Shown: piece after piece, positions 8,453 through 53,335 of the stretch
Position numbering within the stretch: position 1 is the stretch's first letter
Layout of the letters: each line of letters starts with the position of its first letter
Origin: Dehalococcoidia bacterium
GTDB taxonomy: Bacteria > Chloroflexota > Dehalococcoidia > GIF9 > UBA5629
Assembly (NCBI GenBank): GCA_049694415.1
Contig: JBAVQV010000021.1
Location: forward strand, 1-54,166
DNA length: 54,166 nt
Reading direction: 5' to 3'
Notes under the pieces: generated by a model
What the model was told of the DNA's origin: nothing
What the model saw: only the letters and a program-made list of their open reading frames with translations
The model's database searches: none
Position numbers and translations under genes: made by a program

Positions 8453-10375
8453 ATGGCTAAGGCAGTTGGTATTGATTTAGGGACTACTTTTAGTTTGGTA
8501 GCTGTTGTCGAGGGCGGTGAGCCAAAAATAATCCCCAATGCTGAAGGGGAAAGGCTAACACCTTCAGTAGTTGCCATTGATAAGAAGGGTGAACGGCTGG
8601 TGGGATTGTTAGCCAAGAGGCAAGCAATCACTAACCCCGAGAACACAATTTTTAGCATAAAGCGGCTGATGGGGCGCAAATTCAAAGACTCTGAAGTCCA
8701 GTATGACATAAAGCGGTTGCCTTACAAAATAGTCGAAGCCAGTAATGGTGATGCTTGGGTGGTGATGGGGGGCAAGAAGTATAGCCCGGCGGAAATCTCA
8801 GCCATGATTCTGCAGAAGCTGAAGATTGACGCTGAGGCTTACCTCGGCGAGAAGGTCATCGATGCGGTGGTTACGGTGCCGGCCTATTTTAATGACAGTC
8901 AGCGCCAGGCAACTAAGGATGCTGGCACGATTGCCGGGTTAAATGTGATACGTATAGTAAATGAGCCAACCGCTTCAGCTTTAGCTTACGGGCTCGATAA
9001 AAAGGGAGAGGAAACTATCGCAGTCTATGACCTCGGCGGTGGCACGTTCGACATTTCCATACTTGAACTTGGTGAAGGACAATTCCAAGTTAAGTCAACG
9101 AATGGTGATACTCATCTCGGCGGCGATGATATTGACCAAAGAATTATGGACTGGCTGTGTGATGAGTTTAAAAAGGAATCGGGCGTGGACTTGAAACAGG
9201 ACAGAATGGCGTTGCAGCGGCTAAAGGATGCCGCCGAGAAAGCCAAGCGTGAGCTATCAACAGTCGGTCAGACGGAGATAAATTTGCCTTTCATCACGGC
9301 TGATGCCTCTGGGCCCAAGCACATGAATATAACTCTGACACGAGCCAAGCTGGAGCAGTTATCCATGGAATTGCTGGAAAGAAGCATTGAGCCGTGCCGC
9401 AAAGCCTTAACTGACGCGAAACTCACTACGGCTCAGGTAACCGATGTGATTCTGGTCGGTGGGCAGACGAGGATGCCCAAGGTTCAGGATATGGTACGCC
9501 AGTTTTTTAGCAAAGAGCCGGTTAAAGGCGTTAATCCTGATGAGGTGGTGGCACTGGGTGCAGCTATCCAGGCTGGTGTGCTCAAGGGAGATGTGAGAGA
9601 TATTCTCCTGCTTGATGTCACACCTCTTACTTTGGGTATTGAGACGCTAGGTGGAGTAGCCACACCGCTTATTCCGCGGAATACTACTATACCTACCTCG
9701 AAGAGCCAGGTATTCAGCACAGCGGCCGATAATCAGGCTAGCGTGGAAATACATGTGCTGCAAGGCGAACGCCCAATGGCCCCCGACAATCGGACTTTAG
9801 GCCGTTTCATGCTAGACGGCATATTACCGGCCCCGAGAGGGGTTCCCCAGGTTGAGGTTACCTTTGACATTGATGCCAATGGCATCTTAAATGTTCGGGC
9901 CCAGGATAAAGGCACGGGCAAGGAGCAGAAGATAACCATTACTGCTTCCAGTGGTCTGAGCAAAGACGAAGTGGAGAAAATGAGGAGAGACGCAGAATCC
10001 CATGCTGCTGATGATGCTAGAAAGAAAGACGAGGTGGAAACCCGAAATACGGCTGATACACTCGTCTATACTGCTGAACGAACGCTAAGGGAGCAGGGTG
10101 ACAAGATTCCAGCAGACTTGAAACAGGAGTTGGAGGGCAAGATAGCTGCGGTACGCTCAGCTCTTCAAGGTACTGACACAAATTACATGCGCAGCGCCAC
10201 AGAAGATTTATCCAACGTCATGCAAAAAATCGGCTCCGCTGTGTACGGGCAAGCTGGTGCACCACCTCCACCGGGCGGAGAATCCGGCGGCGAAGCCCCT
10301 GGTGAAGCCGAGGGCGGACCTCCTCCTGGTGGCAGTGAAGAAGGTACTGTAGAGGGCGAGTTCAGAGAAGTATAA
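8453..10375 (+). CDS. dnaK: Chaperone DnaK (Hsp70)
   Basis: [12 protein letters not shown]..., DLGGGTFD and [11 protein letters not shown] are Hsp70 signatures. ATG 8453 is preferred over the upstream GTG 8438 because the GAAGGAGGA RBS lies just before it. Confidence 0.97.
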
Positions 10376-40836: not shown

Positions 40837-41478
40837 ATGGATGCTATAACCACAAAAAAGGAAACCAAGCCTCGGTTATCCATAAAAGACATAACATTTG
40901 GTGGCCTGTCTTTATTGTTCACCGTTATTCTTTGTCTTGTTGCCATCTACTACAAAGATTACCTATTGGGCATGGCGGCCTTAGCCACCTATGGCCTTTT
41001 AGGCATGCTCATAATTGCTTTCCTCGGCGGGAGTTTATTGAGCATGCTAGCCGTACCTGTTCCCTATTGGCTGTTAGTCTTCACATTGCCATCTATCATG
41101 GCACCTAAATTCCAGATAGGAGCACCTATATTGGTAGGTTTAATCTCAGGGTTGGGTGCCAGTATGGGGCAGCTACTCACTTTCATGGTTGGTTGTGGCA
41201 GCAGGGACCTATCTCAGAAACTAGCTTACAGGGTTAATAGGAGCTTTTATGATAGAGCCATGAACCTGGCACAGAAGCACGGTTCGCTGGCTGTCTTTCT
41301 TATGTCAGCCATAATAAATCCTTTTCACCTGCCGATGACTTTTGCCATGGCGTCGCTCCGTTTCCCAAGGTGGAAGTTTTTCCTTTACTCTTTACTGGGC
41401 AATATAGTTAAGAGCTCATTTATAGCATTTTGTGGCTATTTTGGATTGACTTCGTTATTCAGATTTCTGGGAATCTAG
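40837..41478 (+). CDS. VTT/DedA-superfamily (YqaA-like) membrane protein
   Basis: 213 aa, multi-TM. It is paralogous to 42931-43515 (shared GLGASMGQ/GLGEAVGS and AVFLMSAI(I/L)NP... motifs). Confidence 0.55.
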   Translation: MDAITTKKETKPRLSIKDITFGGLSLLFTVILCLVAIYYKDYLLGMAALATYGLLGMLIIAFLGGSLLSMLAVPVPYWLLVFTLPSIMAPKFQIGAPILVGLISGLGASMGQLLTFMVGCGSRDLSQKLAYRVNRSFYDRAMNLAQKHGSLAVFLMSAIINPFHLPMTFAMASLRFPRWKFFLYSLLGNIVKSSFIAFCGYFGLTSLFRFLGI

Positions 41479-42930: not shown

Positions 42931-43515
42931 GTGACGATTTCAGAAAAGACAAAATCAAGAAAAAGAGAATACATTATAGGCGGTTTGGCGTTAGCACTAA
43001 CCGTTGCCACTTGCGTTGTTGTCGTTTTGTTCTGGGATTATGTCGGTCAGGCTCAACACTATGGTTACCTCGGTGCCTTTGTCATTAGCGTTCTGGCTGG
43101 TGCTACAGTTTTTGTACCTATACCGGGTATTTTAGTTGTATTTACCTTGGGCAGCGTGCTAAACCCGGCTCTGGTTGGGATTGTGTCCGGCCTGGGGGAA
43201 GCGGTTGGCAGTATTGGCATTTACTTGAGCGGTTGGGGTGGGCAGAAGGCGGTACAAAACCTTAATCACAAATTAGTTAGCAGGTTTGTTGACTGGATAC
43301 GTCGTCGTGGCGAGATTGCCGTCTTTTTAATGTCAGCTATCCTTAACCCATTATTCTATCCGTTCACAGCCATTGCCGGCATGCTTCGGTTTGGGCTGGT
43401 TAAATTCTTTTTTCTATGCTGGGTAGGCAAGTCGGTAAAAAACACAGCAATTGCTTATCTGGGTTATTTCGGGTTGCGCTCAATATTACGCTGGGTAGGA
43501 GTACTAGGAGGTTAG
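42931..43515 (+). CDS. VTT/DedA-superfamily (YqaA-like) membrane protein, paralog
   Basis: 194 aa with a GTG start. It shares its architecture and motifs with 40837-41478. Confidence 0.55.
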   Translation: MTISEKTKSRKREYIIGGLALALTVATCVVVVLFWDYVGQAQHYGYLGAFVISVLAGATVFVPIPGILVVFTLGSVLNPALVGIVSGLGEAVGSIGIYLSGWGGQKAVQNLNHKLVSRFVDWIRRRGEIAVFLMSAILNPLFYPFTAIAGMLRFGLVKFFFLCWVGKSVKNTAIAYLGYFGLRSILRWVGVLGG

Positions 43516-43522
43516 TTAGTTC

Positions 43523-43774
43523 ATGCCTAAATCTAAAGCTAGACCCAAGCCAACAAAAGCTAAGCTTAAGCCCGAGCCAAGAAGCTGGCGGGTAGCACTT
43601 CTTTTATCTCTTTTCCTTGGCCCATTTGGGGCTGACCGTTTTTATATCGGCCGAACTCGCTCGGCGATTGTTAAACTTGTTACCTTGAGTTGCTTTGGCG
43701 TCTGGTGGCTTACTGACCTTATACTTATCGCCGGTGATTGGCGCCGGGATGCCTGGGGTCGGCCACTTAAATAG
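43523..43774 (+). CDS. TM2-domain protein
   Basis: A basic N-tail followed by LLLSLFLGPFGADRFYIGR...WWLTDLILIA, the TM2 domain pattern. Confidence 0.75.
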   Translation: MPKSKARPKPTKAKLKPEPRSWRVALLLSLFLGPFGADRFYIGRTRSAIVKLVTLSCFGVWWLTDLILIAGDWRRDAWGRPLK

Positions 43775-43820: not shown

Positions 43821-43896
43821 GGGGCTGTAGCTCAATCGGGAGAGCGTTTGACTGGCAGTCAAAAGGTAGTGGGTTCGAATCCCATCAGCTCCACCA
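43821..43896 (+). tRNA. tRNA-Ala (anticodon GGC)
   Basis: 76 nt. The acceptor GGGGCTG/CAGCTCC includes the G3:U70 alanine identity pair. The D arm is GCTC/GAGC, the anticodon stem TTTGA/TCAAA with loop CTGGCAG, and the T loop is GGTTCGAATCC. CCA is encoded. Confidence 0.9.
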
Positions 43897-44094
43897 TTAA
43901 CCCTTCTAAAGCTGATATCAATTCAAATCACCTTTCGACTAGCCATAATTCTTACACGCAGTTAGCTATCCCATTGCACCGTTTGATTAACATGTTTTCA
44001 GATACGGATGCTCGAAGTGGTTACCCCCGTTCGAAGAAAATTACTCCCCATCTCCTATAATTAGGAGAGGGGGCAGGGGGGTGAGGTCATTTTC

Positions 44095-44271
44095 TCAACT
44101 CATAGCTTTGCTATAAGCTTTCTTAGAAACGGAGCTAATCCCTTTGAGTTGCAGATAGCGTTAGGACATACGACATTGGAAATGACCAGGAGATACACAC
44201 AAGCATTAGGATTTGATGATGTGTTTAAGAGGCATGTGGTGGCTAGTCCGGTGGATAGGTTGGTAAGGTAG
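44095..44271 (+). pseudogene. C-terminal fragment of a tyrosine recombinase/integrase
   Basis: Translation is (T)HSFAISFLRNGANPFELQIALGHTTLEMTRRYTQALGFDDVFKRHVVASPVDRLVR*. This covers box II with the catalytic His and Tyr region. There is no N-terminal part and no start codon. Confidence 0.75.
44245..44258 (+). repeat. Integrase-tail core repeat, copy 1 (inside the integrase fragment)
   Basis: Exact 14-mer AGTCCGGTGGATAG. Confidence 0.8.
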
Positions 44272-44458
44272 ATGCCCCATCAATTTGTGCACCAAATGCA
44301 AGAATCTGCGGTTTATGGTAAGGGTATGCCCAATGGGATGAAGAGGGAAAAGTGTGGTGAAATTGTCCTTTGGATATAAGGAGATTTTGAGGATAAGGTG
44401 ACACCGCTCGGAAAGCCCTGCATAATTAAGTCTTAGAAACCATGTGCATATACAATGA

Positions 44459-46420
44459 TTACCTATTTTTTCGATAGTACGTGTCGAAGGTCTTCAAAGC
44501 TTTCCCTACATCTGGTAAATATTGCAGAGCACCTTGTGCTTTTGATAAAGCCAATGAGATTAGCTTCGCATCTGCTGTATCTTGGATTCCTTGCAAATTG
44601 ACGATTATACGTTCCCTCAGAGCGGTATTACCTTTTGCGATTGCACATGCGCCAAATATACATAGTAGGATTGCTGCCTCCTGGACGATATTGCTTGTCC
44701 CTTTCCCGGCAGCGTCCATACCTATCTTCATTATTTGATCAGCAGCATTTATTGGAACATCAAATATACCATTCTCAATACATTTGAGGTTAACCTCAGC
44801 TAACTTCGCCGCAATCTTTGATGCCATGTCATCGTTACCAAGCTCCACAGCTTTGATTTCAATATTGACTAAATGTTTGAACACATCATACATGACCGGT
44901 TTCTGGATATTTTCAGCAGCCTTGATTCCGATATCTCTTATTGCCAGTGGAGCCATTGTTATAGAGTCTTCAAGTCCCTTATCAAAAGAGATTAAAGCAA
45001 AGTTGCTCAGGAAATCCACCATTTGCCTTGTTGGATAGTCAATCTTGTTATCTACACATTTCTCGGCAATGGTACACATATAGTATATAGCCTTAGACAT
45101 GGTACCATCCAAACGTTTAGAAGCCGATGCTCTGCTACGGGCAAGGGGCAATTTAAAGAGTTTGGCATATTCTCTTATTGTACTCTCTACACCCCTCTCA
45201 TTGGCTATCATCACCATTTTATGTATAAGTTCTGCCGATTCTCCAGCGGTATAGCCATTTCCCTCTCCAGCGAAATGTACTCCGAGATTAGCCATATCCA
45301 TGATTGCACTGTCTAATGTACCAGTTAACAAACTTCGCTCTGCGGTCTTGATGCCAATATTACCAATTGAATTCACAACAGACCAGCCTAGGCCCGAGCG
45401 TTTGGTGGCAATCACATGACCAATCATGGCCAAGGCACGTACAGCTTTGCGTTCAACTACAAGGATTCTACCTTCACCTTCTCCTGCCATTTTCCCTATA
45501 TCACATAAGCAGTCTATGACTTTATCTACGTGCTCTAGCTCTTTATTTGCCGCCTTTCTGCCAATTTCCTCCAAATATTCAACTACCAATTCTGATATGT
45601 GGACTAGCTGTTTAGAGGTGGCCTCTTTGCCTATATCCCCCAGGTATGTAACCACATGAAACGGTGCTCTTGGGTCTTCTATGGTGGCTACACCTATATC
45701 ACTTAGTCTTTGGAGTATAGTACAGCCAACATCCTTATCTTCTAACCTTGCTTGCCTATTATTTAAAAAATGGGATTGCATTTCACCATCAATGACATCA
45801 TAATTCTTCGTATTAATAACTTCATGATTTATTTCACGAAATACCCGTATGCCCCTATTAAAAGTATCATAGTCTTTAAGAGCAAATGCGCTCATAATCA
45901 TATTATCTATGGTAGCAATTGTCTCAGGCTCTTCTTTTATGTTGGTATTAAGCTGTTTGACCGCACTTTTCTTTAAAGCAACAAGTATTTGCTCAGGATT
46001 AAGCTTCCTTCCGAAATGGATGAAATAAGGAACCAAAAGAAATAGGCATACTGCAGCAAGGGTAAGAGAAGCCTTAGCGCCATAAATGGTAGGTTGGGCA
46101 AGAACCCAAAAAGGTAGGAAAACAGCTATTATAAAAAGAGAGATGTATGATATTGTAATTCTATCTGAGAAACCGGAGGATATCCGGTAAGAGTAGCGCG
46201 AGAACATCTGTATTATTATTAGTGAAATAGTAAAGACAAGAGCCAGAATGGCAGATAGGGACTGAGCAATGGTCGAGAGTAGGTAGAACATTTGGGTTCT
46301 TTCCTGCACGATGCCATTGGGCGCTATGTTCACGACAGGTGGAATATTCAGTACGGGGCACATCCAGATGCCTACAACTACAACTGCAAGTGGTATGAGT
46401 ACGAACAAGCCCTTGTTCAT
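44459..46420 (-). CDS. Membrane-anchored helical-repeat protein (HEAT/ARM-like), unknown function
   Basis: 653 aa. About 5 N-terminal TM helices precede some 9 degenerate repeats carrying L..IG..A (LSDIGVATIE, LGDIGKEATS, LEEIGRKAAN, LCDIGKMAGE, LAMIGHVIAT, IGNIGIKTAE, IRDIGIKAAE, IMKIGMDAAG). Confidence 0.5.
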   Translation of the reverse strand: MNKGLFVLIPLAVVVVGIWMCPVLNIPPVVNIAPNGIVQERTQMFYLLSTIAQSLSAILALVFTISLIIIQMFSRYSYRISSGFSDRITISYISLFIIAVFLPFWVLAQPTIYGAKASLTLAAVCLFLLVPYFIHFGRKLNPEQILVALKKSAVKQLNTNIKEEPETIATIDNMIMSAFALKDYDTFNRGIRVFREINHEVINTKNYDVIDGEMQSHFLNNRQARLEDKDVGCTILQRLSDIGVATIEDPRAPFHVVTYLGDIGKEATSKQLVHISELVVEYLEEIGRKAANKELEHVDKVIDCLCDIGKMAGEGEGRILVVERKAVRALAMIGHVIATKRSGLGWSVVNSIGNIGIKTAERSLLTGTLDSAIMDMANLGVHFAGEGNGYTAGESAELIHKMVMIANERGVESTIREYAKLFKLPLARSRASASKRLDGTMSKAIYYMCTIAEKCVDNKIDYPTRQMVDFLSNFALISFDKGLEDSITMAPLAIRDIGIKAAENIQKPVMYDVFKHLVNIEIKAVELGNDDMASKIAAKLAEVNLKCIENGIFDVPINAADQIMKIGMDAAGKGTSNIVQEAAILLCIFGACAIAKGNTALRERIIVNLQGIQDTADAKLISLALSKAQGALQYLPDVGKALKTFDTYYRKNR

Positions 46421-46611
46421 CGCCTTGTACTAGAGTGGCTAAAGTACAAATCCAAAGTTTGTCTTTTTTTGCTTTCAGTAAATGCCCCAAGTTATTCTAC
46501 CACTATTTATGCTGGTGTTGATATATATAAGCCTTTCTGACCTTTTGCACTCTCTGACATGGTTACCCAAGTTTAATCCCATATAATCGTGGAGAGTCAT
46601 GAGAAATACGG

Positions 46612-46621
46612 CCGGTGGATA
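46612..46621 (+). repeat. Integrase-tail core repeat, degenerate copy
   Basis: CCGGTGGATA lies within ACGGCCGGTGGATAACATTAG, which resembles the ...AGTCCGGTGGATAGATTGATGCATTAG units. Confidence 0.5.
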
Positions 46622-46717
46622 ACATTAGGATATAGCTTCTTTGTATTTGGACTGATTTTCAGTGGGCAGGTCAGCCGATGTATATGACAATGCCAATTAG
46701 GTACTTTGTAGTATCCT

Positions 46718-47068
46718 CTATGATGTTTTGCTACTCCTTCTCTTCATTATCGTGCCAATCTTTATTCCAACATCATAACTAATGAATGCATACGCTACAA
46801 GAATGGCAATAATTCCAAATATAGGATACCTTGGTAATAGCACGACTGCTAACGCAACAAATCCTAGAAATAGCGCAACATTATCGAAACTGAAGTCGGC
46901 TAAAAATACAGCAATTCTAGAATGCCGAAATAGCATAATTATCAAAAATGATACTAACAGAAAGACTGCTAAGATAATGTCTATTATTTGCCATACTCCA
47001 CTCATTAAAAAGGCAAAAGCAAAAAGAGCTAATGCTATGCCGAGTTGTGTTTTCGCAGACTGAATCAT
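46718..47068 (-). CDS. Hypothetical 4-TM membrane protein
   Basis: 116-aa hydrophobic ORF with the RBS GGAGG upstream of the ATG. Confidence 0.45.
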   Translation of the reverse strand: MIQSAKTQLGIALALFAFAFLMSGVWQIIDIILAVFLLVSFLIIMLFRHSRIAVFLADFSFDNVALFLGFVALAVVLLPRYPIFGIIAILVAYAFISYDVGIKIGTIMKRRSSKTS

Positions 47069-47162
47069 CGCCGACCTCCTAGTATGTATTTATTTATGAA
47101 TATAGTGACCTGCCCCAAGTCATTATAGCACTCAAGACTAACTATACGCCCACATATTTCGT

Positions 47163-47183
47163 AATGGAATACCACTAACGTAT
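47163..47183 (+). repeat. Decayed integrase box-II remnant (pairs with 51667-51687)
   Basis: AATGGAATACCACTAACGTAT against AATGGAATGCCACTAACGTAT (20 of 21). It reads RNGIPLTY, compared with FLRNGANPFEL in the integrase fragment. Confidence 0.55.
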
Positions 47184-47236
47184 CAGGAAAGAGTGTGCTA
47201 GAATATGTTTCAAGCGGCAGTATTTAATTCTGGAGG

Positions 47237-47467
47237 TTGATGATGAATAAAGAAATCATCAAGAAGCTATTGCAGGAGCAGAAGGAAGAGAGACAGCATC
47301 AGCTTAAGTTCATAAGAAACACAAAAGTCTTCTATCAGAAGCTAAAGGATGTGGGGTTTCAGCCATTGGGTTCTCTGTTAAGTTTAATCGCTACTTGGGA
47401 GAAGAACCTATCCATGGTTGAAAAAGAGATTAATGAGCTCGAGCAGGCGCTAAAGGATTATGAGTAA
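47237..47467 (+). CDS. Hypothetical 76-aa coiled-coil protein
   Basis: Charged helical ORF preceded by GGAGG. Confidence 0.35.
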   Translation: MMMNKEIIKKLLQEQKEERQHQLKFIRNTKVFYQKLKDVGFQPLGSLLSLIATWEKNLSMVEKEINELEQALKDYE

Positions 47468-47499
47468 GGAATCCCTGGTCCCTTGTTCTATTTACACAA

Positions 47500-47964
47500 T
47501 TATGGATTATGCTCATAAGCATGAGTATACCTTGACCAAACGCTTACAGTTTTTTTAACAATTGTTTTCTGGGGTATGAGTTTGTTTGGTGGAATCACGT
47601 GTGTGTCCACATTAACCTGACCTCTAAGAGGTACATGTGCGGTAACCACCTCTTCTTCATTTGGAGCTAGCTGTATGCTTTCAATTGTTGATTCCTTTTC
47701 AATACCATTGTCAAAAACAAAATTTAGGCTGAATGTACCAGTGAGATTATCAGTGTTTTGGATGCTTTGTTGTGCTTCCCTCCAAGGAATTAGATACAGT
47801 ATGGGCTTGTTCACAACTGTTACTGGTGAAGTCTCAAAGGAATAAGGTTCAGATGTGAAGTGAATCTCGGTCACATCTACAGGCACGATTTCCCACCGCC
47901 AAATAAGAAGTGCTAATACAATTAATACTACAATGCCGATAATGGTGTCTTTCATAGTCTCCAA
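47500..47964 (-). CDS. Hypothetical single-pass membrane protein with beta-rich ectodomain
   Basis: 154 aa with an N-terminal TM helix (IIGIVVLIVLALLIW). Confidence 0.4.
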   Translation of the reverse strand: METMKDTIIGIVVLIVLALLIWRWEIVPVDVTEIHFTSEPYSFETSPVTVVNKPILYLIPWREAQQSIQNTDNLTGTFSLNFVFDNGIEKESTIESIQLAPNEEEVVTAHVPLRGQVNVDTHVIPPNKLIPQKTIVKKTVSVWSRYTHAYEHNP

Positions 47965-48020
47965 ATATTTTCCAATCCTAATTATTCAAGCTGCTGGCGT
48001 ACAAGCCAGGAAATGTTCAA

Positions 48021-48194
48021 CTATTGTATTCGCCTATGTCTCACCTTATTGATATCGCTAAGCCTTATATAAATTTTACCACTCGGATTCGGACGATATG
48101 CGACAATCACCCCATTTGCAATCCAATTACGTAACGTTTGAGGATGTATCCTCAACCTTCTTGCAGCCTCTCTCAGTGTAAGAAACTCCGCCAT
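48021..48194 (-). CDS. Excisionase-type (MerR-like) helix-turn-helix DNA-binding protein
   Basis: 57-aa ORF below the ORF-track cutoff: MAEFLTLREAARRLRIHPQTLRNWIANGVIVAYRPNPSGKIYIRLSDINKVRHRRIQ. This is the classic Xis-family HTH pattern. Confidence 0.65.
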   Translation of the reverse strand: MAEFLTLREAARRLRIHPQTLRNWIANGVIVAYRPNPSGKIYIRLSDINKVRHRRIQ

Positions 48195-48359
48195 TTTGAT
48201 ATATTTTATATAGTTTTATAACGTTTGTCAAAGATTTGATAACTACCAAGGCAAATTACGTTCAAAAGATTGTTAACCAAGTGTTTTTAATAGCGCTATG
48301 TTGTGGTAGGTGTCGTATTCAAATGGTTTGGCTAAGAATCAAAAGGTAAGATTGCAGCC

Positions 48360-48373
48360 AGTCCGGTGGATAG
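48360..48373 (+). repeat. Integrase-tail core repeat, copy 2
   Basis: Exact AGTCCGGTGGATAG. The wider unit AATCAAAAGGTAAGATTGCAGCCAGTCCGGTGGATAGATTGATGCATTAG closely matches copy 4. Confidence 0.8.
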
Positions 48374-48527
48374 ATTGATGCATTAGGGTACGAGGCGGTG
48401 GAGAGTAATAGGAAGTGTGGGCTGGTGGATATACTAAAATGAATTTTGTTTAATGTCTAAAGATGGCTTTCGCTGGGGGACCTTGAACCTCATATTAACA
48501 GACTATGCGGCAATCGATGCCCTGGAA

Positions 48528-48683
48528 TTAAGTTACCTCGCCTGAAAGTGCCCTGCGCAATGTCTTATTTCCACATTTTGGACAAGGGGCTTCTTTCACT
48601 AGTTTCCCCTTAGGAACAGCAACTTTGCCTTTAAAATCACAGTTCCCGCAAACGACTGCTTCTTGATAAGTTTCATCGCTCAT
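48528..48683 (-). CDS. Small zinc-ribbon protein
   Basis: 51-aa ORF below the track cutoff: MSDETYQEAVVCGNCDFKGKVAVPKGKLVKEAPCPKCGNKTLRRALSGEVT (CxxC...CxxC). The RBS AAGGAGA lies upstream. Confidence 0.45.
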   Translation of the reverse strand: MSDETYQEAVVCGNCDFKGKVAVPKGKLVKEAPCPKCGNKTLRRALSGEVT

Positions 48684-48965
48684 TTCTCTATCTCCTTGCC
48701 TTGGTCATAAATATTATATCATACTGATAATATCATTCTAGTGTCGATCGCTTTGTTAGCCCGAATGTATTACTCTAGATGAGTGCCAATTCAAAATCGA
48801 AATTCTTCCCACACGCGTTGCTCCGGTCTCGCTGGTCAGATCTGCATAAGTTTTTAGGCATCCCGGCTTGTGATGTGGACGCTATTTCTATCGTTTGACT
48901 ATGAATCAAACGGTATAAATAAACGTGGTTGCTCTTGGTCACTGTAACTTTAGGATGTGGTAGCT

Positions 48966-48979
48966 AGTCCGGTGGATAG
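48966..48979 (+). repeat. Integrase-tail core repeat, copy 3
   Basis: Exact AGTCCGGTGGATAG. The unit begins TGACTATGAATCAAACGGTATAAATAAACG, which is similar to copy 6. Confidence 0.8.
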
Positions 48980-49103
48980 ACTGGTTAGATAGGGACGATT
49001 GTATGTCCAGCAACAGCCTGATTCAATTGCTGGCGGTTTCCGTTTTGGCATATTGTAACTCTTACTTAAAAATTAGTATACTTCTCGGATAAGTTAGTGA
49101 AGG

Positions 49104-49730
49104 ATGGCTGATATGAAGAGGCATCTTATGGTATGCATGTATGGTCTACTCTGTTTGTCGATGATCGCTGTGTTGGTTGGTTGCACTCCAGCTTCTCCAC
49201 CCTCTGCCCCAGTTACCCCAGTACAACCTACGCCAATACCACCTGTTACTCCGTCTCAAGCCGCATTAGAAGATTTAAAGTTGCCGGCGCATGGTGATAC
49301 AACTCTGCTCACGAATGTTATATCGCCTCCTGATGAAGGACGTGATCATATATGGCCAGACCATCCGGTCGAGTACAAAACAATGCCGCCAACGTCAGGG
49401 CCGCATTTTCCAGATCCTACGGCTCCAGGGTTCTATACTACACGACCTGCATTCGGGTACCTGGTTCATAGCCTTGAGCATGGCTCAGTTGTTGTCTATT
49501 ATGATCCATCTCAACTTACTCCTGAAATCGAAAGGAGCTTAAAGGCATTTATAAAGGCAAACAGTGATCCCGAAGTGGGGATTGTCGCAGTTCCAGACGC
49601 AGATTTTAAATATCCTTTTATACTTACTGCCTGGGATAAGATGCTTCAGCTTAATAAGTATGACCCCCAAGTCGTAAGAGCTTTTTTAGCGGAGTTTCTA
49701 GGGCGTGGGCCTGAGTCGCCAAGCCGTTGA
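49104..49730 (+). CDS. DUF3105-like lipoprotein
   Basis: Lipobox LVGC and a Pro-rich linker, followed by PPTSGPH and HSLEHGSVVVYY motifs typical of DUF3105. Confidence 0.65.
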   Translation: MADMKRHLMVCMYGLLCLSMIAVLVGCTPASPPSAPVTPVQPTPIPPVTPSQAALEDLKLPAHGDTTLLTNVISPPDEGRDHIWPDHPVEYKTMPPTSGPHFPDPTAPGFYTTRPAFGYLVHSLEHGSVVVYYDPSQLTPEIERSLKAFIKANSDPEVGIVAVPDADFKYPFILTAWDKMLQLNKYDPQVVRAFLAEFLGRGPESPSR

Positions 49731-50062
49731 GGACCCTACTAACTTATGGCTTGATTTTACGCGGTGTCATACACCACTTTGCCTCGAATATATACTCGTC
49801 AGGGCAGTATGATATTCAAAGATTTCGCGGTTCTGTTTCTGATTTTGATAGATTGGGCGTAGTAGTTATCCGAGGCCCTACATTCTGCAAATCCTCAACA
49901 ATTTAGCTCACAAGAGCGAAATCGTCGCAATAACTCGTGCATCAGCGTGCAGAAGCAGCGGCTCAAACTCGCTCTGCACTCAAAGCGATGCAGGGAACCA
50001 TTCAGCCTAGCAAATTACTGTTCAAACCTTATGATTCACAATCAAACGGTTAGATTGCAGCT

Positions 50063-50076
50063 AGTCCGGTGGATAG
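50063..50076 (+). repeat. Integrase-tail core repeat, copy 4
   Basis: Exact AGTCCGGTGGATAG within AATCAAACGGTTAGATTGCAGCTAGTCCGGTGGATAGGTTGATACGTTAG. Confidence 0.8.
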
Positions 50077-50121
50077 GTTGATACGTTAGACTATGATGCG
50101 GTGGAGGCACATAAGAGATTT

Positions 50122-50131
50122 AGTCCGGTGG
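50122..50131 (+). repeat. Integrase-tail core repeat, partial copy 5
   Basis: AGTCCGGTGG is followed by the divergent CTGGGTTGAGGTAA, 46 nt after copy 4. Confidence 0.5.
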
Positions 50132-50243
50132 CTGGGTTGAGGTAACAGCGGGATGGAGTAGGTTAAACATACCTATTGACTTTTTATAATCAGTCTAGTA
50201 AAATGCTGAACGCAAAAAACTAATAATTAAGAGGAGGTTATTT

Positions 50244-50609
50244 ATGGTCAAAACCTGGGGATGGATCAGTTTCATACTATTTTGCCTTGGCGTCATACTA
50301 GCTGTTGTCGGAGGTTTAGTATTTCCAGAGAGCATAGTCATTGCATTAATACTTGTCATTTTCGGCCTTATAATCGGTATTATACATGTCAGTATTGACA
50401 AAGAAGGAAAAGGACTGGTTATCCTGCTCCTGGCCACGATAGCAATATTGGCAATGACGGCAGCCTTTTCTCCGGTTACATTTTTGGGCTTCGGTAAAAT
50501 GGCGGCCAGCATATTAGTAAATTTTGCCGCGCTAATGGCACCTGTGGCCCTCGTCGCTGCAATAAAGGCGCTGCTGCAACTATTTCTCGGACCACAAGTT
50601 AAAATCTAG
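50244..50609 (+). CDS. Hypothetical 4-TM membrane protein
   Basis: 121-aa hydrophobic ORF with the RBS AGAGGAGG 7 nt upstream. Confidence 0.45.
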   Translation: MVKTWGWISFILFCLGVILAVVGGLVFPESIVIALILVIFGLIIGIIHVSIDKEGKGLVILLLATIAILAMTAAFSPVTFLGFGKMAASILVNFAALMAPVALVAAIKALLQLFLGPQVKI

Positions 50610-50610
50610 C

Positions 50611-50700
50611 TAGTCTTAAATCAACAAGACTAAATTGTCATTCATCTGAGACAGGTCGCTTTTACTTAAGTGTGAAAGATGGCCTGTCTCATTATTATTG
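50611..50700 (+). terminator. Two hairpins downstream of the 121-aa membrane protein gene
   Basis: TAGTCTT-aaatcaac-AAGACTA (50611-50632), then TGAGACAGG pairing with CCTGTCTCA (50647-50691), followed by TTATTATT. Confidence 0.35.
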
Positions 50701-50844
50701 ACCACGTACGCGAGGTTTTCAAATAAGCGAGAACAGGCAGGTGTTGTATTTAGACGGTTTGACTCTCAATCAAACCCTATAAATAAACGCAGTTGCTTTT
50801 GGGCACTATGGTATGAGGATACTTGCATGGGACAGGTTAAAGCC

Positions 50845-50858
50845 AGTCCGGTGGATAG
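50845..50858 (+). repeat. Integrase-tail core repeat, copy 6
   Basis: Exact AGTCCGGTGGATAG. The unit begins TGACTCTCAATCAAACCCTATAAATAAACG. Confidence 0.8.
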
Positions 50859-50924
50859 ACTGATACATCAAAGCATATATGGGCAGGCAGTCTTGGATTC
50901 ATTTATTTAGCTTCGACTACAACA

Positions 50925-51617
50925 TTACCAGACAGGCGGGATTAGCCGGTATTTCACTTGCTTGGCGTACTCTCTATAACCTGACATTTCATTTTGCAGT
51001 GTGCGGTCTTCCAGCGCCGTGCGGATTACTATTATTATTGTCAATATGCCGCTCAGCACAAAGCCCCACCATGAACCTAAAATCAATGGATAGGCTAATA
51101 TTGAAATGATTAAACCGGCATATCCCGGATGTCTCATTATCTTGTATGGGCCAGATGTACAAACATATTGTTGTCTGTTATCCTGGATGCGCACCGTCCA
51201 TTCAAAGAATTTATTGACGGCCATTGCCCATGTGCCGATCACAAAGGCAGGTATTATTATTACTATGCCCAAAATAGCCAGCCAGAAAGGCATAAACGAC
51301 CATTGAAATCTAACTGCATCGAACCCCATGACGACCAGGTTGCCAAAGGTTAGTACGGGATAAATGGCTACCCATACCTTATCAAAGCCTTTTGTACCTT
51401 CCTTGACAACGCTGCCGCGTTCATTCAACATCTCCGGATTCACTCTTGCCAGCACTACTGTACTTATCACCCAATAAATTGAAACCAGGCCAACGTATAC
51501 CCACGCGTTTATCCAGGCAAGTGTACCCGCTGATATGAATAGGATTGCAAATCCGATGATTATAAGAATTGATTGTACAATGATCCCTCTAATGCCGAAG
51601 TGATTTAGACTGCTCAC
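50925..51617 (-). CDS. Isoprenylcysteine carboxyl methyltransferase (ICMT)/phospholipid methyltransferase-family membrane protein
   Basis: 230 aa, multi-TM. GPYKIMRHPGYAGL...ALEDRTLQNEMSGYREYAKQVKYRLIPPVW is the family signature. Confidence 0.75.
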   Translation of the reverse strand: MSSLNHFGIRGIIVQSILIIIGFAILFISAGTLAWINAWVYVGLVSIYWVISTVVLARVNPEMLNERGSVVKEGTKGFDKVWVAIYPVLTFGNLVVMGFDAVRFQWSFMPFWLAILGIVIIIPAFVIGTWAMAVNKFFEWTVRIQDNRQQYVCTSGPYKIMRHPGYAGLIISILAYPLILGSWWGFVLSGILTIIIVIRTALEDRTLQNEMSGYREYAKQVKYRLIPPVW

Positions 51618-51666
51618 CTCTCACCTCCGATACGTTTCAGAAGTATTATATATCTGCATACTTCCG

Positions 51667-51687
51667 AATGGAATGCCACTAACGTAT
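51667..51687 (+). repeat. Decayed integrase box-II remnant (pairs with 47163-47183)
   Basis: AATGGAATGCCACTAACGTAT is followed by GACTATGGATCAAATGG, which resembles the start of repeat units 3 and 6. Confidence 0.55.
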
Positions 51688-51742
51688 GACTATGGATCAA
51701 ATGGATACCGGATAAAGTCCCAATGCCAACAAGGAGTTTGAA

Positions 51743-52003
51743 TCAGATAAGTCGATCCCCATCAGCTCCACCACGCTGTACGGAACAAAGAACTCCCACT
51801 CTCTCTTGAGATATTCCTTGTGGAGGGAGGGGTATAGTATAGGTCAACAGCACTTCGTCACCTGTTACCTGCATTTCCTTAACAAAGCTCCTAATAAAAG
51901 CCTTCCTTTCTGTTAAGGAACTCTCATTAAGCAAGTTGCGTAGGTCAGCCACATACTGTGTCACCGTTTCCAGATTGGCTAACTCAACTCGCCTATTTGA
52001 CAA
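51743..52003 (-). pseudogene. C-terminal remnant of a large serine recombinase, 3' end reading through the att repeat
   Basis: 86 codons bounded by an upstream in-frame TAG, with only a TTG start. LRNLLNESSLTERKAFIRSFVKEMQVTGDEVLLTYTIPLPP resembles the C-terminal coiled-coil tail of large serine recombinases. This rests on recognition only, not an alignment. Confidence 0.5.
51758..51773 (+). repeat. Direct repeat of the tRNA-Ala 3' end (att-type island boundary)
   Basis: CCCATCAGCTCCACCA is identical to tRNA positions 43881-43896. It extends to 22 nt with 2 mismatches (TCGATCCCC against TCGAATCCC). Confidence 0.75.
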
Positions 52004-52064
52004 AAGAGCAAGATAGTTCCACTAAGAGCCACCTCCCGAGCCAGTATCATCAACTACTACAGGC

Positions 52065-52214
52065 TTAAAAATGCAGGTTGGCTACGATTGCCCATATTCC
52101 GACGATGATAAGATAAATACCGACTATGTAATTAAGTATCCTGGGAAAAATCATTACGATGATGCCAAAAACAAGCGTGATAATTCCCCATAGCAGACCT
52201 GTTGGTTGCCACAT
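52065..52214 (-). CDS. Tiny two-helix membrane protein (DUF3096-like), type B, second copy
   Basis: 49-aa ORF below the track cutoff: MWQPTGLLWGIITLVFGIIVMIFPRILNYIVGIYLIIVGIWAIVANLHF. RBS AAGGAGG. Confidence 0.6.
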   Translation of the reverse strand: MWQPTGLLWGIITLVFGIIVMIFPRILNYIVGIYLIIVGIWAIVANLHF

Positions 52215-52297
52215 AATTACCTCCTTCTTAATTAAACTTAATAAAAAGCAACTCGTTCACAAACTTAAACTAATGTTGCTTATACTGACTGTTACTT

Positions 52298-52444
52298 TTA
52301 CCTAGCAACAGCCACAATAGCCAGAATACCGATCACAATTAGGTAAATGCCAACGATCCACGGCAACAAGCTGGGTATCCAGATGATCAAGATACCCGCT
52401 ATTATGGATAGTATCCCCATTACTAAACCACTTACTTTAGGCAT
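52298..52444 (-). CDS. Tiny two-helix membrane protein (DUF3096-like), type A, second copy
   Basis: 48-aa ORF below the track cutoff: MPKVSGLVMGILSIIAGILIIWIPSLLPWIVGIYLIVIGILAIVAVAR. RBS AAGGAGGAG. Confidence 0.6.
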   Translation of the reverse strand: MPKVSGLVMGILSIIAGILIIWIPSLLPWIVGIYLIVIGILAIVAVAR

Positions 52445-52615
52445 AATAAAACTCCTCCTTTCTTATAATTTAGCTACATATTAATTAGTTGATAATGTAA
52501 TAGTCATATAATTTAAGAGCAAAATATTAAAAAGTTATGACAATTTTGGATTGTTTCTAGCCGTGATAGAGGATATTATTGAAGACTTGGTGGACAGGGA
52601 TTTTCTTGAAAATAG

Positions 52616-53335
52616 TCAGGGCTGGGATTTTTTTAAAATATAGCCCATTTTAGTGACGGTAAGAATGATTTGGGGATCATCAGGTTTCTCCTCGATTTTA
52701 CTTCTCAGACGGCTAATCCATGTCCTGAGGAATTGAACGTCATCACGGTATTCAGCCCCCCAGACGCGGACTAAAAGCTCCTCATAGGTCATGAGACGGT
52801 CAGCATTTAATGCTAATTCGCTGAGCAAGAGCCATTCGATCCGGGTTAAGTATATTATGTTGCCTCTAACCATTACCTTATGTGCCTTGAAATCGATGGT
52901 TATATCGCCCAAAGAAAGCTCATCTGGAATTTTAGGTTCGTTGGGTCTAAACCGGCGCATCACTGCTTCAATTCTGGATACCAGTTCATCAGGACTAAAA
53001 GGCTTTGCTATATAGTCATCGGCCCCCATGTCAAGCCCTGTTATTTTGTCACGTTCATCTCCCTTGGCGCTGAGAAATATGACAGGCACCGTTGAAAAAC
53101 CACGTATCTCTTTAAGCACATCAAACCCATTCATTTCAGGCATGAGTATGTCAAGCAAGATCAGGTCGGGATGGCTGGCATGAAACTGCTCTAAAGCCTC
53201 AAGACCGTTGCTCGCAGTTACCACTTCATATCCCAGTGCTCTCAGGTTTGACTTGAGAAATTTTAGGATCCGTATCTCGTCGTCAACCACCAGTAACCGG
53301 TACTTTTTCACACTCTGTTGTCGACTAGCCATCAT
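52616..53335 (-). CDS. OmpR-family response regulator
   Basis: Receiver domain (LLVVDDE...DLILLDILMP...LSAKG) plus a winged-helix output domain (LTRIEWLLLSEL...VWG...LRTWISRLRSKIE). ATG 53335 is preferred over the TTG at 53356. Confidence 0.9.
   Translation of the reverse strand: MMASRQQSVKKYRLLVVDDEIRILKFLKSNLRALGYEVVTASNGLEALEQFHASHPDLILLDILMPEMNGFDVLKEIRGFSTVPVIFLSAKGDERDKITGLDMGADDYIAKPFSPDELVSRIEAVMRRFRPNEPKIPDELSLGDITIDFKAHKVMVRGNIIYLTRIEWLLLSELALNADRLMTYEELLVRVWGAEYRDDVQFLRTWISRLRSKIEEKPDDPQIILTVTKMGYILKKSQP

Follow-up and report, generated by a model that had tools for sequence, protein, structure and literature searches.

Integrons are the only well-understood builders of single-gene cassette arrays, and they are treated as a one-off that relies on a folded attC site and a special integrase. 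Small modules with short repeated sites are also handled by Xer recombinases, as in the pdif modules of Acinetobacter plasmids, whose sites occur in alternating orientations and are served by the XerC/XerD of the host, and in the integrative mobile elements exploiting Xer (IMEX). The cis-mobilizable and integrative and conjugative elements (CIME/ICE) of streptococci provide another case of tRNA-type islands that grow by accretion. Here we analyse an island from a member of the Dehalococcoidia, a class that is important in sediments, in peat and in dehalogenation. It occupies 7.9 kb of a stretch of 54,166 nucleotides (nt) of contig JBAVQV010000021.1 (this whole stretch is called the window), bounded by a tRNA-Ala(GGC) gene on the left and, on the right, by 22 nt that repeat its 3' end, and it is divided into small cassettes by co-oriented copies of the 3' end of a tyrosine integrase gene. 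We call these copies tails, the site that they repeat T, and a second site, resembling the tRNA anticodon arm, S. The feature is genuine and is found repeatedly within a bacterial class, and the reading that suits it best is a cassette platform of a novel sort.

The locus is integron-like in its working: small cassettes, most of them with a single gene and each with one site copy, are lined up behind a tyrosine recombinase gene, the same cassette occurs in different orders and genomes, and a related array without a recombinase in the stretch examined (L001; L numbers designate the loci compared) resembles the clusters of attC sites lacking integron-integrases (CALINs). Yet only one of the four integron features tested is present, namely an array of small one-site cassettes varying between genomes. 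As for the other three, T is a linear 44-nt site without a hairpin, in contrast to a folded attC; the primary site is contained in the recombinase gene, at its 3' end, and faces downstream, unlike the attI/Pc layout of integrons (attachment site and cassette promoter), which is upstream and divergent; and the integrase is not an IntI, scoring 63.8 and 35.7 bits with the NCBIfam integron-integrase models (cutoffs of 265 and 435, respectively). In further contrast to integrons, the cargo lies in either orientation and the platform sits in a tRNA-bounded island. Compared with the pdif modules, every site here has the same orientation, the recombinase is encoded by the island and linked to a tRNA, and no dyad is present in T.

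tRNA-Ala is a known island hotspot in Dehalococcoides (PMC2764846), and the islands that accrete there at tRNA-Ala and ssrA (PMC2764846; PMC3146451), together with the tycheposons (10.1101/2020.12.28.424599), share with this locus the integrase on the tRNA side, the 3'-end repeat, tandem stacking (seen here in L027), integrase-less derivatives that keep attachment sites, and scattered integrase fragments. They differ in that the repeated unit here is an integrase tail and not a partial tRNA, the interior units measure 0.4-2 kb and hold one gene, the fragments are always C-terminal and co-oriented, and the breakpoints lie at the tail. The suicidal integrases of the Sulfolobus spindle-shaped virus (SSV) type have their recombination target inside their own gene, in a compact module of integrase and site, an idea that the present loci would share, and were stated to be exclusive to Archaea in a 2021 review (PMC8371274); the host here is bacterial. 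Integration of the SSV type splits the gene into two dead parts, whereas in the present loci the site occupies the final ~8 codons and the frame would be restored by the arm that comes in: breakpoints are in the last codons, the gene stays whole since right arms restore Leu-x-x-stop, and interior fragments have variable 5' ends with no fixed split point. The integrase family is also different, being Xer-like and not Phage_integr_3 (PF16795). Literature searches returned no description of integrase-tail arrays, which is not proof of absence.

Architecture and recurrence of the island

The window feature is a tRNA-bounded island and falls within the wide group of tRNA-integrating islands: the integrase adjoins the tRNA gene, whose anticodon arm lies at 43846-43864, and a direct repeat of the tRNA 3' part closes the island. 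The window copy of the integrase is not intact or catalytically complete. The G+C content of the island (39-46%) is lower than that of the left flank (47-51%), which points to a foreign origin. In L018, a peat metagenome-assembled genome (MAG) whose core genes flanking the island are 86-89% identical to those of the window, the tRNA direct repeat is 51 nt long and starts at the anticodon stem.

Only residues ~1-50 and 288-343 of the integrase are left in the window (tblastn). A previous reading of this DNA from its letters alone (the sequence-only reading) had taken the 14-mer AGTCCGGTGGATAG to encode SPVDR near the stop of an integrase fragment, and this proved correct: the 14-mer translates in frame to SPVDR, and the fragment at 44101-44271 is a true integrase C-terminus, which aligns to positions 134-168 of the 172 of Pfam Phage_integrase and shows 95% identity to residues 288-343 of P0068, a full-length integrase. 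Because residues ~50-287 are replaced, the window integrase is, judging from its sequence, dead, and movement now would need an integrase supplied in trans. A protein search with the 57-amino-acid (aa) tail gave 66 matches, all of 36-100 aa, as if no full-length integrase existed; this was a limit of that first search, and a profile search then recovered P0068 and others. P0068 is an Xer-like tyrosine recombinase (its best NCBIfam models are XerA, XerD and XerC, all below cutoffs). The full-length integrase has the Pfam domains Phage_int_SAM_4/5 and Phage_integrase; P0068 has the Arg, Lys, His-x-x-Arg, His and Tyr motifs, and in relatives the gene is complete, with its RHR and Tyr motifs. A viral origin was rejected, relatives in IMG/VR being at most 50% identical. 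Related integrases (34-38% identity) at tRNA-Met, tRNA-Ile and tRNA-Pro do not share the habit, since they show no tail arrays, bar one extra fragment in L032.

Strong conservation is also seen, in 15 loci, in the non-coding leader that separates tRNA-Ala from the integrase start, with the blocks CCTTTCGACTAG, ACACGCA-TTAGCTAT and CCGTTTGATTGAAGG. At the probable TTG start of the integrase it contains a CGTTTGA half-site (43980-43986), which has the same sequence as the left half of the tRNA's anticodon arm, and the leader with this half-site could be an autoregulatory or arm site.

The 14-mer is present in five exact copies (44245, 48360, 48966, 50063 and 50845), all on the + strand, exactly where the sequence-only reading had placed them. 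Allowing up to three mismatches the matches rise to eight, against 3.1 ± 1.5 expected, a number reached by none of 100 shuffles. Leu-x-x-stop follows in four of the five copies; each unit had been described as ending in a stop, and unit 6 (Table 1) lacks one at the usual place. The likeness claimed between units 2 and 4 and between units 3 and 6 amounts to 74% over 111 nt and 76% over 74 nt, respectively. Both partial copies reported, at 46612 and 50122, are tail boxes: the first corresponds to a degenerate box at 46609, whose right arm recurs at L029 3224-3285 (82%), and the second is a 5'-truncated second box, which is also found at 48419 in unit 2 and belongs to one right-arm family. Between consecutive copies lie small genes of either orientation, as had been stated, numbering one to five instead of one to three. 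Two elements at 47163 and 51667 had been read as remnants of the RNG..P box II of the integrase; tblastn with the full integrase fails to align them, and we re-read them as conserved arms adjoining stem-loops that resemble the anticodon arm. These arms, at 47153-47183 and 51657-51687, share 87% identity, and further copies occur in L009 and L027. The sequence-only reading mentions neither the tRNA gene and the repeat of its 3' end, nor the leader with the N-terminal integrase remnant, nor those stem-loops.

Scanning a single genome from each species yielded 26 loci, almost all of them in Dehalococcoidales or Dehalococcoidia MAGs; the design is found in about 30 Dehalococcoidia loci, and the common plan consists of tRNA-Ala (GGC or TGC), a leader of ~90 nt, a full-length integrase on the same strand and then co-oriented tail copies. 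The full-length integrase adjoins the tRNA in L011-L018 and L020, and comes after a tRNA-Ala gene in L013-L018 and L020. Beyond the integrase's own tail, L014 has six more by tblastn and five by nhmmer, L020 four by either method, and L018 two and three, respectively; L001 carries 11 tails in 10 kb, in cassettes of mostly one gene each. A 39-nt tail model (nhmmer, E<1) detected ~80 copies over the loci examined, every one on the integrase strand, and the tail-to-tail spacing (40 intervals) has a median of 1110 nt, with 75% below 2 kb. Integrase fragments within the arrays start between residues 204 and 333 and reach the C-terminus (most to 339-343), and N-terminal pieces are found only beside the tRNA or a tRNA copy. 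L027 contains two islands in tandem, the second of which opens (9705-10146) with a copy of the tRNA 3' end, followed by the leader and by an integrase broken in the same way as that of the window.

Misassembly at a repeat of ~20 nt is unlikely as the source of these arrays, given that an independent assembly (L060) is 100% identical to L018 over 9.5 kb and that several loci lie on contigs of 0.25-2 Mb. A pattern scan of metagenomes for tails of the r1 right-arm type gave three contigs only, one of them identical to L018. Spread to Archaea or across domains was considered for L002-L007, from JGI peat metagenomes, which carry an archaellin-type Pfam match, but was rejected, as these loci share stretches of 906 and 1806 nt with a Dehalococcoidia MAG (L021) at 93-96% DNA identity. 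One tail homologue at NCBI is labelled Hodarchaeales, and a binning error is possible there.

Sites T and S and the proposed exchange of cassettes

We propose that the tRNA-linked integrase exchanges cassettes at the tail core or immediately 3' of it, and that S serves for joining at the level of islands and mini-elements, and from the sequence comparisons we give this reading a probability of about 0.55. The island would be a tRNA-Ala-linked cassette platform run by an Xer-like tyrosine integrase, and its intact order, as relatives show, is tRNA-Ala, the ~90-nt leader, the integrase and a row of small cassettes, each ending in a copy of the integrase tail (site T). Cassettes would be both cut out and inserted by recombination at this position, and the DNA to the right of the crossover would move with the cassette, that is, the last three integrase codons with the stop, the right arm and the cargo. 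The incoming cassette would in this way re-complete the integrase reading frame, and the previous tail would be pushed downstream as a 5'-truncated, untranslated copy. In the window lineage S, mimicking the tRNA-Ala anticodon arm, marks many right-hand cassette ends, and whole islands and integrase-less mini-elements would join the tRNA or each other there. We infer that the adjacent integrase is the catalyst and that exchange at T is site-specific rather than driven by short homology, and the exact crossover position given here is likewise a deduction.

Site T covers ~44 nt, with the core GCN-AGTCCGGTGGATAG. Across 23 tails that have no integrase homology beyond -17, positions -3 to +13 are 82-100% conserved, except for the codon-third position -1 (47%), against ~40% in the flanks and background values 20 nt further out. 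A cleaner test than this set, which is biased because it was found through the core, is given by five diverged, integrase-less units that are recognisable by their arms: identity is 97% in the core, compared with 78% in S, 76% in the linker and 69% at positions +14 to +26. Where the copies differ, the changes are for the most part synonymous (Ser as AGT or TCN, AGA/AGG, CTG/TTG), and the right arms keep Leu-x-x-stop in frame, with the TA of this stop found in 86% of the short tails. The T consensus contains a direct repeat, GGTGGCTAG / GGTGGATAG, 12 nt apart and matching at 8 of 9 positions. In the r1 right-arm family two more GGTGGA-like boxes follow 32 and 59 nt downstream, the second being a truncated tail that reads KRF-SPV.... 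The motif GGGCAGGTCA terminates one right-arm family of tails (L016, L018:11437, L020:11627, L023:11130 and L029:3221). The only Rfam match was to tRNA, with none for T. A CAGTC/GACTG hairpin around the core was rejected, as it varies only in the way that synonymous Arg and Leu codons predict and fails with a TCN Ser codon.

The second site appears in the window as six stem-loops of the type TTTGA, 7 nt, TCAAA (43847, 48327, 48894, 50030, 50758 and 51685, all on the + strand); the one at 43847 is the anticodon arm of the tRNA, and the other five lie within the island. With inverted arms of 5-6 bp around a 7-nt centre, S has the dyad layout usual for the core site of a tyrosine recombinase and fits that of Xer/dif sites, which T does not. 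The loops are of the form CTNNNAA, and those recurring across genomes are CTATGAA, CTATGGA, TTCACAA, CTCTCAA, CTAACAA and others. It was also seen that the stems are conserved and the 7-nt loops vary (window, L027, L009, L020 and L058); matching overlaps might define which S sites pair, as in heterospecific lox sites. The right ends of segments common to several genomes fall at S (window 48912, 50050, 50762 and 51704). The window and L018 share the same sequence as far as GTTTGA and diverge within the 7-nt loop, after which L018 continues as the 3' part of tRNA-Ala, the end of its island, and the window as linker, tail and methyltransferase cassette; such a breakpoint is the signature of a tyrosine-recombinase crossover in the 7-nt overlap. 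S sites are found in the clade of the window (L009, L020, L027 and L058), and no S-like site or hairpin lies upstream of the L001 tails. Since the L001 array has T without S, T is the general repeat and S a feature of a lineage.

Two cassettes are shared between the window and L018 at identities above those of the flanking core genes. The zinc-ribbon cassette (window 48357-48821, L018 10220-10684) is 97.6% identical and lies directly behind the intact integrase of L018, and the cassette of the 121-aa membrane protein (window 50060-50762, L018 13780-14482) is 98.7% identical and lies behind an unrelated left arm in L018. In both cases the similarity begins 3 nt before the tail core. The L018 integrase ends in ...SPVDRLMH-stop, its last three codons coming from the cassette arm seen at window unit 2. 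To the left of the two shared cores the window has S, a 14-nt linker and the core, in a diverged family with 76-78% identity; because this left arm is old and diverged, a recent deletion is excluded as the origin of the two junctions, and exchange at the tail is needed. A further switch is seen between L018:12034 and L027:10127, which are ~87% identical through the integrase fragment up to +16 and then 100% identical for more than 180 nt. Cassette order also changes, as the zinc-ribbon cassette precedes a cassette X in L018, and the order in L027, which holds the zinc-ribbon cassette twice, is X, DUF3105, zinc-ribbon. Finally, the remnant beside the tRNA shows 90% identity when the window is compared with L008/L009, whose core genes are ~78% identical to those of the window.

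The sequence-only reading had suggested searching relatives for the same units beside other cargo, and this is what the genomes hold: the same right arm and cargo stand behind unrelated left arms, including that of an intact integrase. It had named cargo invariant across strains as evidence to the contrary, and the order of cassettes differs between genomes. Reassortment, the identity contrast, the switch at +17, the changes of order and the constraint on the core favour exchange at the tail over neutral decay. As the islands of L027 stack in tandem at the tRNA besides the proposed exchange at tails, and many tails are integrase genes truncated at the 5' side, both of the mechanisms offered earlier, namely repeated tandem integration with loss of all but the tails and a recombination site inside the integrase 3' end, would operate, at different scales.

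Several observations weigh against cassette exchange at the tail. The T consensus has no dyad symmetry (at best 4 of 9 positions are complementary), and RNAalifold on 22 tail units found no conserved hairpin (0 pairs); unlike S, T does not resemble a standard two-arm recombinase core, which is the chief weakness of the proposal. The attC-like structured core that had been envisaged is thus missing, and of the neutral decay without a conserved structured core that was to speak against it, the lack of structure is found and the lack of conservation is not. The integrase is a plain Xer-like enzyme in which NCBIfam detected no extra domain, which does not readily account for action on T, and tblastn with the full integrase found no intact copy within the window. 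The breakpoints at window positions 48821 and 49934 are at neither T nor S. Among the loci compared, neither circular cassettes nor empty-site polymorphism was seen, and clean sharing bounded by T concerns three or four cassettes in one clade (window, L018/L060, L027 and L030). The 5'-truncation points form a continuum, which fits random deletion as well. In addition, the core itself served as the query that recovered the tails, so that the constant presence of T is partly an effect of ascertainment and units cut past T are invisible.

If the proposal is right, this is the first bacterial recombination target inside an integrase gene, extending to Bacteria an idea confined to Archaea, and a cassette platform that needs no folded attC. 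The logic of cassette platforms would have evolved more than once, there would be a mechanism behind the highly plastic regions that begin at tRNA-Ala in the Dehalococcoidia, and co-oriented ...ASPVDRLxx-stop tails could serve as an annotation marker for such arrays. We advance only tentatively the bolder claim of a second, independently evolved integron-like system in the Dehalococcoidia, in which one-gene cassettes would dock at the last codons of an Xer-like integrase by means of tail copies that repair its frame.

Alternative explanations

The alternative that survives best, although we regard it as unlikely, is accretion followed by decay. Here complete elements, made up of S, the tRNA 3' part, leader, integrase and cargo, would stack, together with derivatives that have lost the integrase, only at the anticodon loop or S, integrases would be whittled away from their 5' side, and junctions at T would be deletions or short exchanges of the RecA type, with T kept by some other need in cis or refreshed by homologous recombination with the tails of live integrases. 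This account draws on the recombinase-core shape of S, the breakpoint inside its loop and the right ends of common segments that fall there, on the true tandem stacking of L027, on the continuum of truncations from residue 204 to 333, and on the second truncated tail 59 nt past the first in one right-arm family, which looks like the debris of deletion; fragmented integrases and partial tRNAs are, moreover, known in tRNA-linked islands (10.1101/2020.12.28.424599; PMC2764846). It has difficulty with the 11-tail array of L001, where S or any other hairpin is absent upstream of the tails, so that S is not the general boundary. The two near-identical cassettes would each require an independent deletion at -3 that joined them to the same old linker family, and the change from 87% to 100% identity occurs at the end of the integrase homology, where only 11 nt are identical, a poor substrate for RecA. 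The core is 97% conserved in untranslated units, against 69-78% for homologous flanks, and no tRNA 3' copy, leader or N-terminal piece accompanies the interior tails. Were it true, the locus would be a clear example of tRNA islands that stack and shed their integrases.

We find it improbable that T is only a binding or regulatory site, with tandem GGTGG(C/A)TAG boxes to which the integrase, the protein of the excisionase family or some host factor would bind, either to assemble a recombination complex at a nearby S or to control the expression of the cargo. The direct repeat in the T consensus and the two additional boxes of the r1 right arms are the kind of arrangement this would call for, T stands only 14 nt past S in the compact units, and an excisionase-family gene lies within the array. 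To our knowledge, however, Xer-like integrases have no arm-binding domain, and none was detected in this one; T is 1.2 kb from S in full elements, the L001 array has T without S, and the breakpoints at T would still require exchange there.

That the tails are pure neutral remnants, integrase pseudogene ends without present function whose cassette look is incidental, is very improbable: the mostly synonymous differences, which indicate that the copies descend from different once-functional integrase genes, the SPVD motif, a protein feature across the wider integrase family, and the dead window integrase agree with it, but a core conserved far above homologous flanks in untranslated copies, ~80 tails all on one strand, a tRNA-adjacent remnant more similar between genomes (90%) than core genes (~78%), and cassettes 97.6-98.7% identical, with edges at the core, against 86-89% elsewhere do not.

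Cargo genes and flanking DNA

The features of the island are given in Table 1. The Pfam, PHROGs and NCBIfam matches of the cargo suggest no defence or resistance function; no defence-system library was screened. An inverted repeat, TGGGCAGGTCAG and its complement (46663-46674 and 47106-47117), brackets the gene of the 116-aa membrane protein; it shares the motif GGGCAGGTCA with the right-arm family of tails named above.

Table 1. Features of the tRNA-Ala island in the window (ORF, open reading frame; HTH, helix-turn-helix).
Feature	Position	Strand	Evidence and remarks
tRNA-Ala(GGC)	43821-43896	+	ARAGORN; Rfam tRNA 69.5 bits; left attachment site of island
Leader and first ~15 integrase codons	43897-43998	+	tblastn to P0068 residues 1-50; alignment of 15 leaders
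Filler replacing integrase residues ~50-287	43999-44100	+	Itself a conserved left arm; blastn to L024 9910-10179, L025 9902-10171, L027 9762-10146
Integrase C-terminal fragment, residues 288-343	44101-44271	+	Ends ASPVDRLVR-stop; tail core T 44245-44258
Right arm of first tail and left-arm-like unit without own core	44272-44393	+	blastn to L014 18969-19105, L027 5645-5754 and 11097-11208, L029 6344-6455, L018 12823-12898
653-aa membrane-anchored protein, function not assigned	44459-46420	-	ORF; weak DUF2254 match below cutoff
Degenerate tail unit	46524-46673	+	Box CGGCCGGTGGATAA at 46609-46622 (3 mismatches), GGGCAGGTCA right arm; blastn to L009 8377-8442, L029 3224-3285
116-aa membrane protein	46718-47068	-	ORF; no family match
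Conserved arm unit (formerly read as RNG remnant)	47121-47183	+	Ends in half S site; L009 6975-7037, 82.5%
76-aa ORF (47237-47467) and 154-aa ORF (47500-47964)	47237-47964	+ and -	No function assigned
57-aa excisionase-family HTH protein	48021-48194	-	Pfam HTH_17 9.7e-12; NCBIfam TIGR01764 32.2 bits (cutoff 28.8); phrog_66
Unit 2	48318-48432	+	S 48327-48343 (TTTGG-CTAAGAA-TCAAA), 14-nt linker, core 48360-48373, right arm with second box 48419-48432
51-aa zinc-ribbon protein	48528-48683	-	Cassette 48357-48821
Unit 3	48883-48992	+	S 48894-48910 (TTTGA-CTATGAA-TCAAA), 55-nt linker, core 48966-48979, stop codon
208-aa DUF3105 lipoprotein-like protein	49104-49730	+	Pfam 6.5e-26; 88% copy at another array position, L027 11450-11939
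Unit 4	49921-50135	+	Arm 49921-50029, S 50030-50046 (TATGA-TTCACAA-TCAAA), linker, core 50063-50076, second box 50122-50135
121-aa membrane protein	50244-50609	+	Cassette 50060-50762
Unit 6	50747-50871	+	S 50758-50774 (TTTGA-CTCTCAA-TCAAA), 70-nt linker, core 50845-50858, no stop codon
230-aa PEMT/ICMT-family membrane methyltransferase	50925-51617	-	Pfam 4.9e-13; cassette 50867-51704 90% identical to L030 12068-12904
Unit 7	51636-51701	+	Conserved arm, S 51685-51701 (TATGA-CTATGGA-TCAAA), without tail core
22-nt copy of tRNA-Ala 3' end	51752-51773	+	2 mismatches, 0 expected by chance; island right end

At the right end of the island, the final codons of an 86-aa ORF (51743-52003, - strand) cross the 22-nt copy of the tRNA-Ala 3' end. 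This ORF has 122 database relatives, every one of 48-151 aa; several bear the name 'site-specific DNA recombinase', and PF07508, the large serine recombinase domain, is present in two. It looks like a second family of recombinase-tail remnants, with a 3' end overlapping an attachment site, and an older element at this tRNA gene is its probable source.

Beyond the right end of the island, positions 51774-53234, which hold DUF3096 genes and the beginning of a response regulator gene, match L027 18700-20150 at 98.7% identity, while the left flanks of the two are only 88.9% identical; the right flank of the window may itself be mobile or recently imported. It encodes tandem DUF3096 membrane proteins of 48-49 aa (52065-52214 and 52298-52444, - strand), and a stretch of 259 nt around the second of these genes (52258-52516) is 84% identical to positions 8738-8996 of L002-L007, beside the integrase tails of those loci. 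Shortly before the tRNA, two paralogous membrane proteins of the VTT/DedA type (40837-41478 and 42931-43515, + strand) enclose a methyltransferase-like gene and a 273-aa gene, and are followed by a TM2-domain gene (43523-43774). DNA similarity across this VTT/DedA-TM2 stretch is common to L008, L018 and L027.

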